This document shows positions 19,280 to 28,788 of a stretch of 37,116 nucleotides of DNA, piece by piece. Within the stretch, counting starts at the first letter, position 1. Each line of letters starts with the position of its first letter. This DNA comes from a virus, in the UHGV virus genome UHGV-0272165; one strand, written 5' to 3'. The notes below the pieces were generated by a model. The model saw nothing but the letters and a program-made list of their open reading frames with translations, searched no databases and had not been told where the DNA came from. The translations under genes were made by a program, and so were the position numbers.

Positions 19280-19355
19280 TGGTGCTGGTTAACGGACTTG
19301 AACCGCTACCCATTCGCTTACAAGGCGACTGCTCTACCATTGGAGCTAAACCAGC
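19280..19355 (-). tRNA. tRNA-Thr (anticodon UGU)
   Basis: Hand-folded 76-nt cloverleaf: 7-bp acceptor stem GCTGGTT/AACCAGC, D-arm GCTC/GAGC, anticodon loop CUUGUAA, T-arm AGCGG-TTCAAGT-CCGTT, encoded CCA. Confidence 0.7.
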
Positions 19356-19360
19356 ATATT

Positions 19361-19435
19361 TGGCGGGACAGCGTGGACTCGAACCACGATAAGAAGGTTA
19401 ACAGCCTTCCGTAATGACCTTTATACGACTGACCC
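19361..19435 (-). tRNA. tRNA-Asn (anticodon GUU), possibly slightly degenerate
   Basis: Hand-folded 75 nt: anticodon stem GAAGG/CCTTC, loop CUGUUAA, T-arm CGTGG-TTCGAGT-CCACG, encoded CCA; acceptor stem has one U-U mismatch and the D-stem is only 3 bp. Confidence 0.55.
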
Positions 19436-24090: not shown

Positions 24091-24381
24091 TCATTGCCTT
24101 ACCTCCATAAGCGCCCTATTAATAAACGCCGTCATTGGATTTGCACATCCCCACCCCGTACCATCTGGATTTCTTTTAATTGGCTCCTTCTTCACTTTGC
24201 GCTTTGCATAAATAACCGTCTTCCACTTACGCTCAACAACACTCAAATGCCCTTGTTTCACCATATGCCTTGCTGCTTGAGCGATTCTGTTATTTGGTAT
24301 TCCGGTGATCAGAGCTAATTCATGTGGGGAGAATTGTTCATGAGTTTTCAGATATTCCAGGATGATTTCTTTTCCAGTCAC
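24091..24381 (-). CDS. Ren-like protein
   Basis: 96 aa; MTGKEIILEYLKTHEQFSPHELALITG... resembles remembered lambda Ren N-terminus; sits directly after the replication genes as in lambda. Confidence 0.65.
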   Translation of the reverse strand: MTGKEIILEYLKTHEQFSPHELALITGIPNNRIAQAARHMVKQGHLSVVERKWKTVIYAKRKVKKEPIKRNPDGTGWGCANPMTAFINRALMEVRQ

Positions 24382-25289
24382 GATCTGCTCCTGTAACTAT
24401 CCCATGTAAACGCAAGAGTGCACCCGCCGCCATCATTCATCCTGTCAATAACACGCTCACCAATGAATGCCGAAAGTTCATCTTTGCTCTGATTACTAAT
24501 CAGGATTGTTGGCTTCATGTATTCATATCTGGTGTTGATAATTTCGAACATGATTAGCTTTTCAGCATCACTGCCGAACTGCACGCCAACCTCATCGATT
24601 ATTAACAAGTCAGGATGCGTAAATTGCCTAATGACTTCTTCTTCAGTTCTGGTTGCGGCCTTAGACCATGTTGATTTGTACTCTCTGGCAATTTTCAACG
24701 CAGTGGTAAATATCACAGAGCTTTGATGCTCGATAATGGCGTGCCTAGCGATAGCCAGTGCAAGGTGGTTCTTTCCAGTTCCAGGCTTACCACACATGAC
24801 CAGTCCGCCACCTTTTTGAAGGCGTTCAGGCCACTTACTGGCATATGCCTGGCAAACCTTAAGAACTCGCTTTGCATCATCGTTAACAGGCTCATAATTC
24901 TGAAGAGTGCAATTTTTGAACCTCTCTGGAATATTGAGAGAATTCAACAAATATTCAATTTTTGATTGTCTTGCTCTTTGTTCTGCCTGCTCACGTTCAA
25001 TCTCTTTCTTACGAATTTTCTCCTCAAGGCACTGTGGGCACTCAGATTTACTTGAAGTAATTCTTTTTCCTGAGATGGTCAGATATTTCTCATAGGAAGT
25101 ATATTTACCGTGTTTCTCGCACTCTTCCACTGTGCTGGTTACTGACATTCCATCTGATGCTGATCCAATTTTGCTAAACTCAAGTTTCTGTTTCAGATCA
25201 GAAATGTCATTGATTTTTGAGTCTACAAGTTGCCTTTGCAGTGCCAGATTGTAACCATTTGTCGTATTCATATTCACTCCTGCGCCCAT
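24378..25289 (-). CDS. DnaC/IstB-like AAA+ helicase loader (replication protein)
   Basis: Walker A GKPGTGKNHLA and Walker B LLIIDEVG; Cys-rich N-terminal segment; downstream of the O-like gene. Confidence 0.85.
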   Translation of the reverse strand: MGAGVNMNTTNGYNLALQRQLVDSKINDISDLKQKLEFSKIGSASDGMSVTSTVEECEKHGKYTSYEKYLTISGKRITSSKSECPQCLEEKIRKKEIEREQAEQRARQSKIEYLLNSLNIPERFKNCTLQNYEPVNDDAKRVLKVCQAYASKWPERLQKGGGLVMCGKPGTGKNHLALAIARHAIIEHQSSVIFTTALKIAREYKSTWSKAATRTEEEVIRQFTHPDLLIIDEVGVQFGSDAEKLIMFEIINTRYEYMKPTILISNQSKDELSAFIGERVIDRMNDGGGCTLAFTWDSYRSRS

Positions 25290-26071
25290 GAAGGCATTTC
25301 AGTTTGCCCGTAATCTTTGGCGGCAAAGTTTTCCTGCATAGCTCGCTGCTGCGGCCTCGGTTGAGATTTCCCCTTTGGAGTCTTGGGTTCAAAAATCCCC
25401 TGCCAACCACTGGCGATGCTCTGGTTTATAATTTCTTCAGGTGTATATCCCTTCTCCAGACTTCTGCTTAGAACGTTGATAGCCTGAGTGACACTTTGCT
25501 TAGACTTGATCGACTTACCTATCTCCTTGCGATAGGTAACCCACGACAACCATGTTTCTGCCGATAACCAATCAGGCAACTCTGTTTCTAGCGGGTCGAA
25601 CTTCTGAGAATTTTTTTTGGGGGATATAGGGGGTTTATTAATATTTTCTTTTGTCTTTAAAGAATGTCTTTTGTGTGTCTCTAACTTCGAGACAAAGTTG
25701 CTAACTTGGAGACACTTGCTGAATTGCCACGCAGATACCTCCCTGTTTACACCGATTTGATTTCCATCCATAAACAGGCAATTCATTGAAATCAGTTCTT
25801 TTTTAGCCTTGTTAACATTCTGCCTTGATAGTCCTGTTAACTGAGCAATTTGCTCATCGGCTATTCGATCTGTTTTCTTATTGAATCCATATGTTTTCCG
25901 GACGTAGGCCAGCATAATTTTCAACTGGCGAGCGGTTAAATCGGCACTTGCGATAGCTTCCAGCAGCTCGTTAGCGAATCTGGTGTAACCATCATCGATA
26001 TCAGCCACTCTTAGCTCCTGTTCGGCAAAGTTACCTCTGCCGAAGTTGAGTATTTTTGCTGTATTTGTCAT
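25274..26071 (-). CDS. Replication initiator (lambda O-like organiser)
   Basis: 265 aa after cII; N-terminal helix-turn-helix-like region; contains an internal AT-rich tract and inverted repeats like an origin. Confidence 0.75.
   Translation of the reverse strand: MTNTAKILNFGRGNFAEQELRVADIDDGYTRFANELLEAIASADLTARQLKIMLAYVRKTYGFNKKTDRIADEQIAQLTGLSRQNVNKAKKELISMNCLFMDGNQIGVNREVSAWQFSKCLQVSNFVSKLETHKRHSLKTKENINKPPISPKKNSQKFDPLETELPDWLSAETWLSWVTYRKEIGKSIKSKQSVTQAINVLSRSLEKGYTPEEIINQSIASGWQGIFEPKTPKGKSQPRPQQRAMQENFAAKDYGQTEMPSWAQE
25610..25714. repeat. Putative replication origin inside the O-like gene: AT-rich tract plus iteron-like repeats
   Basis: AATTTTTTTTGGGGGATATAGGGGGTTTATTAATATTTTC followed by palindrome TGTCTCTAACTTCGAGACA (25676-25694) and related CTAACTTGGAGACA (25701-25714). 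Confidence 0.4.
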
Positions 26072-26105: not shown

Positions 26106-26384
26106 TCAGGCCTCGAAGAATTCGCCGTTCTTCGGGGCTTTTTCTTTTGTCAGCATTCTGGCTACTTGCTTAGCCAGTTCCGCCAACTCCTCGTCTTCAA
26201 CACCCCATTCAAGAACAGCAAGAAGCATTCCCATTTTTGGGATGAAGCTGTCTTTCCATCGCGAAATTTGCGATTCATTAATCCCTAACGCGTCGGCAAC
26301 CTTTCGCTGACCACGTACAGCAATTCGATTCAGGATGTTGCTTGTAATTGCATTCGCTTTCTTGCGAGTACTTGTAAGTTGCAT
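26106..26384 (-). CDS. cII: CII-like transcriptional activator
   Basis: 92 aa; ...SQISRWK..FIPKMGMLLAVLEWGV.. matches the core of remembered lambda CII. Confidence 0.85.
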   Translation of the reverse strand: MQLTSTRKKANAITSNILNRIAVRGQRKVADALGINESQISRWKDSFIPKMGMLLAVLEWGVEDEELAELAKQVARMLTKEKAPKNGEFFEA

Positions 26385-26441
26385 ATGTAAGTATTTCCTT
26401 AACTAATAAGAAGTTATGCGCATCAACTTATGCGCGTTGTA

Positions 26442-26487
26442 TTCCCGCATTTCGGCGGGAATGAGGACCATGACTGTTAAAGAGCGG
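26442..26487 (-). promoter_or_regulatory. nutR-like site (boxA CGCTCTTTAACA, boxB hairpin UCCCGC-CGAAAU-GCGGGA)
   Basis: Directly downstream of cro on the minus strand; the same boxA/boxB pair recurs in reverse orientation at 28117-28158. Confidence 0.6.
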
Positions 26488-26492
26488 TGTTA

Positions 26493-26687
26493 CTATTTGT
26501 TTTTCTTGTTGCTTGGGAAAGGACGAACTTCCTCTCCAATCACACTGCCATCAGGCTTTACCGTAACCATGATGTTACGGCCTGCCAGAATGGCCTTGCT
26601 GATAGCGCACTGGATTACACCAAAGTCACTGGCTGCTTTAGCCTGTCCATGGATTTTGGCGTAATCGGCAAGTGTCATTCGAATCAT
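26493..26687 (-). CDS. cro: Cro repressor
   Basis: ...[57 protein letters not shown] resembles lambda Cro; start set to the ATG 6 nt after GGAGA. Confidence 0.85.
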
Positions 26688-26718
26688 ATGCACTCTCCGT
26701 TATTAACCATGAACAAAG

Positions 26719-26758
26719 AATACTACAGGTATTCAAAGCAATCAATACTCAGGGTATT
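26719..26758. promoter_or_regulatory. OR-like operators (two AATAC-N5-GTATT palindromes) with divergent promoters
   Basis: AATACTACAGGTATT (26719-26733) and AATACTCAGGGTATT (26744-26758) between cro and cI; TAGAAT -10-like hexamer ~7 nt before the cI ATG suggests a near-leaderless cI transcript. Confidence 0.5.
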
Positions 26759-26793
26759 TTTAGTTTAAGTACCTTAGCTATTAGAATTAAGCT

Positions 26794-27510
26794 ATGGAAA
26801 ATAAAAAATCACTGACGACAGAACAGCTGGAAGACGCTAAGCGGCTTAAGGCTTTGTATGAGTCAAAAAAGAAAGAATTGGGAATAACCCAATACTCAAT
26901 CGCTGATGAACTGGGTATCACCCAAGGAGCGGTAGGGCATTATCTTAATGGCAGAAATGCGCTAAACGTTGAGGTTGCATCTGGTTTTGCACGATTGTTG
27001 CAAGTCTCAATTGCTGATTTTAGCCAGTCAATTGCTGCCAAGGTTGCAGAACAGGCAGAAAGCCTTAAGAGCGATGCCAACGTAAGGTATGCAGGGGAAT
27101 ACAGAGCAGGAAAGAGGTATCCGGTGTTAAGCAGTATCCAGGCTGGCTCGTGGTGTGAAGCATGCGAACCATACACCATTAAAGACATAGATGTTTGGCT
27201 TGAGTCTGACGCGCATATTCAAGGTAATGCGTTCTGGCTTAAAGTGGAAGGTGATTCAATGACGGCACCGGTTGGATTAAGCATTCCAGAGGGAACATTC
27301 GTTCTTTTCGATACCGGAAGGGAGGCGATCAACGGCAGCTTGGTCATAGCAAAACTTTCTGACTCTAACGAAGCAACATTCAAGAAGCTGATAATCGACG
27401 GCGGAAATAAATACCTCAAGGGACTTAATCCTGCATGGCCTCTCGTGCCAATCAATGGAAACTGCAAGATTATAGGCGTTGCAATTGAGACAAAACTCAG
27501 ACTGGTTTGA
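26794..27510 (+). CDS. cI: CI-type repressor (HTH plus LexA-like S24 peptidase domain)
   Basis: HTH (QYSIADELGITQGAVGHYLNG) and S24 motifs (VEGDSMTAP, FKKL); divergent from cro across the operators. Confidence 0.9.
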   Translation: MENKKSLTTEQLEDAKRLKALYESKKKELGITQYSIADELGITQGAVGHYLNGRNALNVEVASGFARLLQVSIADFSQSIAAKVAEQAESLKSDANVRYAGEYRAGKRYPVLSSIQAGSWCEACEPYTIKDIDVWLESDAHIQGNAFWLKVEGDSMTAPVGLSIPEGTFVLFDTGREAINGSLVIAKLSDSNEATFKKLIIDGGNKYLKGLNPAWPLVPINGNCKIIGVAIETKLRLV

Positions 27511-27527
27511 TCACGCAAGGGGCGAAT

Positions 27528-27896
27528 ATGGTTGGAACCGCTATAGCAAGCTTTTTAGGGATGTTGGCAATATCGACAATTTACTGCTTAGCGCATGCTT
27601 TTATTGCGAAATCTCTATCAGAAAAAATAAGCCAGGCTTGGGCGCATAGATCAGCTCGTTTCATGATTCTGGTGATCATGGCAATACAAGGGATATCTAC
27701 ATTTTTCCTCTATGGATCAAGCTTATACCTATTGTATCAAGGCGCGACATTTACGCCTTACACCAGTGATTACGGAACTCTATACGATGGTAGTGAAGAC
27801 ATCTCTATGGCTTGGATTGTCTTTGGTTTATCTATGGCCGTGTCTGTTGTAGCAGACATCATTAAGGTAATTCTCGTCTTAACCTTCGCTGACTAA
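27528..27896 (+). CDS. Small integral membrane protein (about 3 TM helices) downstream of cI
   Basis: ATG at 27528 with AAGGGG SD, 18 bp after the cI stop, same strand; three hydrophobic segments; clearly lower GC than cI. Confidence 0.6.
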   Translation: MVGTAIASFLGMLAISTIYCLAHAFIAKSLSEKISQAWAHRSARFMILVIMAIQGISTFFLYGSSLYLLYQGATFTPYTSDYGTLYDGSEDISMAWIVFGLSMAVSVVADIIKVILVLTFAD

Positions 27897-27983
27897 CCCA
27901 TAATCCCGGCAGCAATAGCTATCGGGATCCACTTCACATATCCCGCATAAAAAGCACTGAACAAGCAGACACCGAAAAAAATA

Positions 27984-28069
27984 AATATCCTTTGTATTCA
28001 TTTGCTTATCATTATTTCACCAAAAATAAATACCTTGGGTATTTACACAATAAAATACCTACAGTATTC
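27984..28069. promoter_or_regulatory. OL-like operators (AATAC-N5-GTATT palindromes), probable pL region
   Basis: AATACCTTGGGTATT (28030-28044) and AATACCTACAGTATT (28055-28069) share the OR half-sites; weaker third copy AATATCCTTTGTATT (27984-27998). Confidence 0.5.
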
Positions 28070-28116
28070 TTTAGCCATCAGCAGGACGCTGGTAGCCAAA
28101 CGGAACAGATTGGCAG

Positions 28117-28158
28117 GCTCTTTAACATTGATGGGATTGTCCCGCCGAAATGCGGGAA
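28117..28158 (+). promoter_or_regulatory. nutL-like site (boxA GGCTCTTTAACA plus boxB hairpin identical to nutR)
   Basis: Same boxA/boxB as at 26442-26487, reverse complemented, upstream of N. Confidence 0.6.
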
Positions 28159-28515
28159 CTGAGTTTAACCAAACAGGAGGTGCCGTAATGGTGCACTAAC
28201 GCGGTTAGACCGCAGCCGAAAGGCAATGCAGCAGTAATGATGCTGCCCCGAGTCGCGTAATGGCGAGCAGGTTTAGCAGACCGATGTGAGGGTAAATAAG
28301 GGAACATGCTCCGGAAAGGCAGCGCGAATGCCAGACGCGCACCGGTTATCAGCGGCTAATAAGCGACAGAGACTCAAGGGCATGAGCGCGCTCACTGCGA
28401 GAGTGTGAGTCAAAGAGTAGTTGGCTTTGGGGTGACGTGAAGTGCAGCTGCACGACGGCAACCGAAAGATAAGCACCCGGCGCGTCACCGCCAAAGTCAA
28501 TCATCGGAGGTCAAC

Positions 28516-28788
28516 ATGACAGTAGTCATTACATATCTGGCTGACGATAACGCCAGAAATCGCCGCAGAGCACGCAGACAGGCTCAACGTGAACAGGCAA
28601 TGCAAGAACAGCGACTGGCGCGAAAAATTTCGCTAAAGCTCTCTGGTTGCGTCAGAGCAGACAAAGCAGCATCACTCGGAAGCCTTCGCTGCAAGAAGGC
28701 AGATGAATGCAGTGGAAGTATTTGCCTGCCAAACGTAGCTATTTACGCGGCAGGCTACCGGAAATCAAAACAACTGACGGCGAGGTAA
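28516..28788 (+). CDS. N-type antiterminator (P22 gene 24-like)
   Basis: Arg-rich N-terminus (NARNRRRARRQAQREQ) and C-terminal LPNVAIYAAGYRKSKQLTAR matching remembered P22 gp24; follows nutL. Confidence 0.85.
   Translation: MTVVITYLADDNARNRRRARRQAQREQAMQEQRLARKISLKLSGCVRADKAASLGSLRCKKADECSGSICLPNVAIYAAGYRKSKQLTAR

Follow-up and report, generated by a model that had tools for sequence, protein, structure and literature searches.

An HK620-type early regulatory region in a lambdoid prophage, with a structured RNA inserted between nutL and N

The early regulatory region of phage lambda, the sites of which we read from NC_001416, uses operators of the TATCACCGC type and two boxB hairpins, GCCCUGAAGAAGGGC in nutL and GCCCUGAAAAAGGGC in nutR, each with a boxA (CGCUCUUA) 8-9 nt upstream. 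The locus described here has a closer counterpart in coliphage HK620 (genome paper: Clark, Inwood, Cloutier, Dhillon, J Mol Biol 311:657, 2001, as cited in PMC2629481), whose GenBank record (AF335538) annotates pRE, tR1, nutR, pR, OR1, OR2, OR3, tIMM, OL3, OL2, pL, OL1 and nutL. We analysed the virus genome UHGV-0272165, a stretch of 37,116 bases that we call the window, in which a first-pass annotation made from the sequence alone had pointed to an immunity region with AATAC-N5-GTATT operators and a pair of nut sites. By megablast against phage records, positions 26380-28520 of the window are 98.5% identical to HK620. This is very probably the early regulatory region of a lambdoid prophage with the HK620 immunity type and a lambda-like layout. 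It also holds an insertion of 251 bp, placed between nutL and the leader of N, which HK620 lacks and which, as argued below, encodes a structured RNA.

The relationship with HK620 extends to the individual sites. In a pairwise alignment, OR1-3, OL1, OL2, both boxA cores and both boxB hairpins are base-identical in the window and in HK620, and the two also have in common pR, pL and the gene set cII, cro, cI, hkaS and N. The same immunity type is found at 98-99% identity in mEpX2, HK630, HK140, HF4s and phi296/phi367 and at 97% in two Stx2c-converting phages, while 146 complete Escherichia coli genomes contain a copy covering at least 80% of the immunity-region query. In immunity type, the window falls with HK620, by its overall identity and by its identical operators. 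Because the HK620 record marks these sites, the observation of the palindromes and the nut sites re-derives a published annotation: the immunity and nut architecture is already known, and the first-pass observation is correct but ordinary. As far as can be judged from the sequence, its reading of the operators and nut sites fits the gene layout and equals the HK620 annotation base for base.

The palindrome AATACNNNNNGTATT, of the form AATAC-N5-GTATT, is present in exactly four perfect copies in the whole window, confined to the cro-cI gap and the region upstream of N, with two in each (Table 1). Dinucleotide-preserving shuffles gave a mean of 0.02 copies, and none of 100 shuffles contained four. 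A further site upstream of N, AATATCCTTTGTATT at 27984-27998, has one mismatch to the palindrome and corresponds to the weaker third site that had been described there. All of the sites listed at first pass were located, but the list had overlooked a third site in the cro-cI gap, AGTACCTTAGCTATT at 26768-26782, which has two mismatches and forms the core of OR3. We built an operator weight matrix (PWM) from the four perfect sites and scored it across the window. On this sequence evidence the right operator is tripartite, with perfect OR1 and OR2 and a degenerate OR3.

The layout of these sites is that of lambda. In both phages, tripartite arrays of 17-bp sites with a spacing of 23-25 bp overlap the divergent pR/pRM promoters and pL; in the window, neighbouring centres are separated by 25 and 24 bp in the right array and by 25 bp in the left one, compared with 24, 23 and 24 bp in lambda. 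Three 17-bp operators of the window overlap pR and the putative pRM, a second array overlaps pL, and the divergent genes flanking the right array encode a CI with an HTH domain and an S24 self-cleaving domain, as in lambda, and a Cro of the lambda fold family. The specificity is nevertheless distinct: the half-site is AATAC, as opposed to the ATCAC type of lambda, and the operators of lambda are only partly symmetric, compared with four perfect palindromes in the window, where OL3 is also unclear. Moreover, cI is followed by hkaS in the window and by rexAB in lambda. The pR promoter, which shares sequence with both OR1 and OR2, falls within the pR feature of HK620 (26710-26745 in window coordinates), and pL is the sole sigma-70-like site reported by the promoter scan in the region. 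No Shine-Dalgarno site precedes the cI ATG, and OR3 ends 10 nt upstream of this ATG, as in lambda. With a TAGAAT so close to the start codon, these features suggest that the cI message made from pRM is likely to be leaderless.

The two nut sites are built around a repeated hairpin. As in lambda, P22 and phage 21, each consists of boxA, a spacer and a hairpin, one being placed after pL and the other after cro, and the N protein has an arginine-rich N terminus. Two copies of the 18-mer TCCCGCCGAAATGCGGGA are present, one in each site and on opposite strands, for a chance expectation of 0.02 even with three mismatches allowed. Its RNA, UCCCGC-CGAAAU-GCGGGA, is predicted to pair into a stem of 6 bp that closes the 6-nt loop CGAAAU (-9.7 kcal/mol, z = -2.9); within this loop, a GAAA tetraloop may form on top of a C-U mismatch. 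The report of an identical boxB with a 6-bp stem and a hexaloop at both nut sites is therefore borne out by both the repeat and the fold. Both hairpins are preceded by GCTCTTTAACA, with spacers of 14 nt in nutR and 12 nt in nutL. The two sites had been said to carry the same boxA; this holds for the 11-nt core GCUCUUUAACA, which matches the rrn-type consensus, and fails for the base directly 5' of it (C versus G). Both boxA sites are marked in the mEpX2 and HK630 records, the nutR one as a putative boxA.

The boxB hairpin had also been thought to differ from that of lambda, and the difference is real, since the lambda boxB read from NC_001416 has a 5-bp stem and a pentaloop (GAAGA or GAAAA). 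The lambda-specific pattern, GCCCU-GAARA-AGGGC with a GNRA-like pentaloop, does not describe the hairpin of the window. The boxA sequences differ as well (GCUCUUUAACA compared with CGCUCUUA in lambda), as do the boxA-boxB spacers (12-14 nt compared with 8-9 nt). A protein of the Pfam N_peptide family with an arginine-rich motif is encoded downstream of nutL. Its N terminus is arginine-rich (NARNRRRARRQAQREQ, with the stretch NARNRRRARRQAQ), its C-terminal part falls in the N_peptide domain, and the arginine-rich stretch is the only part that it shares with lambda N. Together with the divergent boxB, this supports the proposal that the N specificity would not be that of lambda.

We then asked how far this nut pair is tied to the HK620 repressor cassette. 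An exact scan of viral contigs for boxA-N8-20-boxB returned at least 120 stretches, and among the matches listed both nut sites were present in 91 viral loci, always divergent and pointing outward from the repressor cassette. In 38 of these 91 listed loci the inter-nut segment is about 1630 bp, the length seen in HK620, and contains four AATAC-N5-GTATT palindromes. The 53 others have different inter-nut lengths (about 1090 bp in 38 of them and about 1160-2920 bp in the rest) and no such palindrome. It follows that the N/nut module is common to several immunity cassettes and recombines separately from the genes of the repressor, in keeping with the mosaic nature of lambdoid phages. The idea that operators and nut sites together define the immunity type can thus be retained for the operators and has to be abandoned for the nut sites, as these 53 loci enclose other repressor cassettes. 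Among the matches listed, the same boxA/boxB pair flanks at least five length classes of inter-nut segment.

By analogy with lambda, the following switch can be proposed. The 17-bp AATAC-N5-GTATT sites would be operators for dimers of the lambda-like CI and of Cro, OR1-3 overlapping the divergent pR and pRM promoters, and OL1 and OL2, with an uncertain third site, overlapping pL. In the lysogen, CI would silence pR from OR1/OR2 and pL from OL1/OL2, and in the lytic pathway Cro would occupy the same operator sites. The pL and pR transcripts would each carry a nut site, in which an rrn-like boxA precedes the boxB hairpin. N would bind boxB through its arginine-rich N terminus and, with host Nus factors at boxA, would render RNA polymerase resistant to terminators.

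Other roles for these sites have to be weighed. A chance origin of the palindromes and hairpins is ruled out by the shuffles. It is highly unlikely that the two hairpins are not N-binding boxB elements and serve instead as terminators, as RNase III sites or as targets of another factor, with N acting elsewhere. The nutR hairpin does adjoin the tR1 terminator annotated in HK620, yet neither hairpin is followed by a T-run and neither was called by the terminator scan. Moreover, an identical boxA stands 12-14 nt before each of them, they occur once per early transcript at canonical positions, and the pair travels with this N gene across different immunity cassettes. That the palindromes are made by chance, or are recognized by Cro only or by a protein other than CI, is extremely unlikely. 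In favour of this reading, the recognition helix of Cro is close to that of lambda Cro, yet the half-site differs. Against it, the sites are restricted to the two early promoters and spaced as in lambda, the Pfam search revealed no other DNA-binding gene in the cassette, and the count of four palindromes tracks the 1630-bp inter-nut segment, falling to zero in the 53 listed loci of other lengths.

Some observations weigh against the assignment of the region as a lambda-like switch of the HK620 type. The annotation of HK620 was itself predicted from sequence, and our search of the literature found no binding or antitermination experiments for this immunity/N type. The pR promoter has 8/12 matches, which is under the threshold of the generic promoter scan. 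On the left side, the position annotated as OL3 in HK620 (28006-28022 in the window) is unlike the other operators, with a PWM score of -26.3, and the candidate at 27983-27999 is centred 45 bp away from OL2 and overlaps the HK620-annotated tIMM terminator. This candidate, AAATATCCTTTGTATTC, sits 23 bp further left than the HK620-annotated position. The third left operator is therefore ambiguous, the site noted at first pass being, by sequence, a better match than the OL3 of HK620. An HK620-type region with a lambda-like layout remains our strongly preferred reading.

The one large difference between the window and HK620 in the alignment is the 251-bp insertion, which begins two bases after the nutL boxB and lies ahead of the N leader. 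It comprises a Shine-Dalgarno site, a mini-open reading frame (mini-ORF) and about 210 nt of structured RNA (approximately 28201-28410). An nhmmer search matches the window at 28179-28407. From copies collected with two conserved words, 71 that are less than 93% identical were aligned, and a consensus fold of 35 pairs in eight helices was tested on them. In this alignment 97.1% of the cells are paired, and 20 of the 35 pairs show compensatory double changes, in 120 cells. None of 500 shuffles reached any of the five covariation measures. When the partners were slid by 1-3 columns, pairing fell to 25-39% and the compensated cells to at most 31. G-U pairs are tolerated on this strand only. The two search words used to collect copies are invariant by ascertainment and so uninformative for covariation; a divergent copy in phage phiKO2, which lacks both words, keeps the helices through further compensatory changes. 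The result is a multi-helix fold with many conserved unpaired bases.

This evidence also bears on whether the insertion could be a degenerate coding fragment or recombination junk with no function as RNA, which we regard as very unlikely. Its single-sequence fold is no more stable than that of shuffles (z = -1.3), the structure having emerged only from the comparative data; HK620 does without it; and only two of 112 further listed loci with this nut type carry it, which makes it an optional module. Against this stand the covariation, the tolerance of G-U pairs on a single strand, the absence of any long ORF in the insertion, and its conservation across genera at unrelated genomic sites, always oriented like its neighbouring genes in those annotated phage records that we examined. 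No transposon-like ends or target duplications are evident at the junction between the HK620 and window sequences. Searches of Rfam 15 at the gathering score gave no match on the insertion, nor on the element in 12 other loci, and a search of 28060-28560 at E values up to 10 gave only a chance match to snoR35 (E = 4.7, 12.6 bits compared with a gathering score of 40). From comparative sequence data, a structured RNA with a conserved mini-ORF predicted to load ribosomes is well supported.

About 80 of 100 distinct copies of the RNA have, directly 5' of the structure, a Shine-Dalgarno site, a start codon, 0-5 sense codons and a stop. The start is ATG in nearly all copies and TTG in a few; 50 of the 100 copies have two sense codons, and 11 have a bare start-stop. 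The codons themselves are not conserved (for example ATG TAA, ATG AAG CAA TAA and the ATG GTG CAC TAA of the window). Conservation is instead seen in the placement of the ATG, which precedes an invariably positioned AGACCGC motif, and the first conserved helix, by about 19 nt. The CCGC of this motif has two possible partners: a local CGG just after the mini-ORF, paired in 88% with no covariation, and a distal GCGG, paired in 98% but partly fixed by ascertainment. The phiKO2 copy keeps the local GCGG/CCGC option and does not clearly keep the distal one. As an initiating ribosome would cover the 5' partner CGG, a translation-dependent choice of fold is possible, in which initiation at the mini-ORF would decide between the local hairpin and the long-range helix with the distal GCGG. 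We also considered that a conserved GCUCCGG might sequester the Shine-Dalgarno site, an idea that was dropped when inspection of the variant groups by eye showed no covariation.

The mini-ORF recalls the bar minigenes of lambda and the small RNA toxins of the CreT type, with which it has in common a strong Shine-Dalgarno site and a reading frame of only one or a few codons, placed in a phage leader that is highly transcribed. CreT also has a structured RNA behind its mini-ORF. However, bar and CreT lack the multi-helix fold of about 210 nt, and in the inserted RNA it is the distance from the ATG to the structure that is conserved, not the codons. A minigene of the bar or CreT type, which would rely on specific rare or toxic codons, does not fit, as the codons vary freely down to the bare start-stop.

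Phages of Enterobacterales carry the RNA at various places, among them after Q, after cI/pL and near Acb2-like genes. It is 99% identical in mEp213. In phages of other genera the identity is 77-88% and the genomic positions are unrelated: Hafnia phage yong1 has the RNA behind rexB, Klebsiella phage RothC has it immediately behind Q with tRNAs next, and in E. coli phage 733R5 it lies between the lysis genes and an HNH/terminase region. It is also present in Providencia phage PSTCR7lys. A scan of viral contigs with two conserved words gave at least 120 matches, and a scan of one genome per species found the RNA in 32 genomes, almost all of Enterobacterales. It is carried by 113 of 5,426 complete E. 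coli genomes. Neither in these nor in the annotated phage records examined is it ever annotated as RNA. A literature search found no description of the RNA, with incomplete coverage, so that an earlier description is possible. In the phiKO2 telomere phage the divergent copy is full length (locus L009, 2291-2539, + strand; 50557-50805 of the record), has the mini-ORF ATG AAG TAA and ends at the putative terminator of the record, where it is unannotated. In one viral contig (L020, 3632-3804, + strand) the Rfam small RNA STnc100 (RF02076, 54.4 bits) directly follows the 3' hairpin of the RNA.

To characterize its genomic context, we ran Pfam scans on the nearest same-strand ORFs, with crude ORF calling. 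The upstream neighbours include Q antiterminators (approximately 16 of 91), CI-type repressors (10), Acb2/Tad1-like proteins (6), Rz1 and Ral; those downstream include DUF2560 (7), N (4), holins (6) and TerB (3). This diversity rules out a fixed downstream gene, as would be expected for a cis-regulator of the riboswitch type. An obligatory link with tRNAs or terminators was likewise rejected, since a tRNA lies within 600 nt in 8 of 136 copies and terminator-like hairpins are adjacent in approximately 15-18%. Whether 28160-28410 belongs to an undescribed family of complex-folded phage RNAs (at least eight helices), ribosome-loaded and movable among the early (pL) and late (post-Q) operon leaders of Enterobacterales phages, is in our view evenly balanced.

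The remaining features of the region are collected in Table 1. The start of cro was taken as in HK620, and an in-frame GTG is present at 26693. The hkaS-like protein has no Pfam match. The hairpin in the N leader is common to HK620; it folds at -42.6 kcal/mol (z = -3.4), none of 200 shuffles folding as well, and presumably resembles the RNase III-sensitive hairpin of the lambda N leader. Beyond cII and O, the window encodes a DnaC/IstB-like loader where HK620 has an annotated helicase-type P, which indicates a mosaic joint to the right of the immunity region. Two adjoining tRNA genes (Rfam tRNA, 61.5 and 55.3 bits), at 19283-19355 and 19364-19435 on the - strand, have the same orientation as the rightward (pR) operon.

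Table 1. Features of the early region and their coordinates in the window
Feature	Position	Strand	Sequence or basis
DnaC/IstB-like AAA+ loader	24378-25289	-	Pfam IstB_IS21
O	25274-26071	-	Pfam Phage_rep_O
cII	26106-26384	-	Pfam Phage_CII, E = 1.7e-42; counterpart of HK620 cII
HK620 nutR feature	26441-26486		mapped from HK620
nutR boxB	26443-26460	-	repeated 18-mer and fold; inside HK620 nutR
nutR boxA core	26475-26485	-	GCUCUUUAACA; 14 nt upstream of boxB
cro	26493-26687	-	Pfam Cro PF09048, E = 3.6e-26; 63% identity to lambda Cro
pR	26717-26745	-	-35 TTGATT 26740-26745, 17-nt spacer, -10 TATTCT 26717-26722; read from sequence
Perfect copies of AATACNNNNNGTATT, cro-cI gap	26719-26733, 26744-26758		
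OR1	26718-26734		GAATACTACAGGTATTC; perfect palindrome, PWM 19.9; annotated OR1 in HK620
OR2	26743-26759		CAATACTCAGGGTATTT; perfect palindrome; centre 25 bp from OR1; annotated OR2 in HK620
OR3	26767-26783		AAGTACCTTAGCTATTA; degenerate, 2 mismatches, PWM 9.7; centre 24 bp from OR2; HK620 OR3
Putative pRM -10	26782-26787	+	TAGAAT; 6 nt before cI ATG (26794)
cI repressor	26794-27510	+	Pfam HTH_3 and Peptidase_S24; 43% identity to lambda CI
hkaS-like	27528-27896	+	counterpart of HK620 hkaS, downstream of cI
Candidate third left operator	27983-27999		AAATATCCTTTGTATTC; 1 mismatch, PWM 12.5, sixth best in window
HK620-annotated OL3	28006-28022		TTATCATTATTTCACCA; mapped via alignment; PWM -26.3
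Perfect copies of AATACNNNNNGTATT, upstream of N	28029-28043, 28054-28068		
OL2	28028-28044		AAATACCTTGGGTATTT; perfect palindrome; annotated OL2 in HK620
pL	28042-28070	+	TTTACA, 17-nt spacer, TATTCT; inside HK620 pL feature; overlaps OL2 and OL1
OL1	28053-28069		AAATACCTACAGTATTC; perfect palindrome; centre 25 bp from OL2; annotated OL1 in HK620
HK620 nutL feature	28116-28157		mapped from HK620
nutL boxA core	28117-28127	+	GCUCUUUAACA; 12 nt upstream of boxB; inside HK620 nutL
nutL boxB	28140-28157	+	identical to nutR boxB
Insertion	28160-28410	+	Shine-Dalgarno site, mini-ORF, structured RNA
Shine-Dalgarno site of mini-ORF	28175-28180	+	AGGAGG
Mini-ORF	28188-28199	+	ATG GTG CAC TAA
Long N-leader hairpin	28420-28501	+	just 5' of N Shine-Dalgarno site
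N antiterminator	28516-28788	+	Pfam N_peptide, E = 1.8e-15; counterpart of HK620 N

For typing purposes, the prophage belongs to the HK620 immunity type, which predicts immunity to HK620, mEpX2, HK630 and related phages, and its N/nut specificity is one that HK620 shares with other phages. Two points can be added to the existing record: the OL3 of HK620 misfits the operator motif, a better site lying 45 bp from OL2, and the nut/N module spans several immunity cassettes. The part of the locus that deserves follow-up is the RNA insertion, which in other phages recurs after Q genes and beside genes for anti-defence proteins. A role in trans is conceivable, for example as a decoy against host defence or as a ribosome-directed factor, and the RNA could also act in cis on the transcript that carries it. 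In the window, where it lies between nutL and N, it could thereby affect the synthesis of N.

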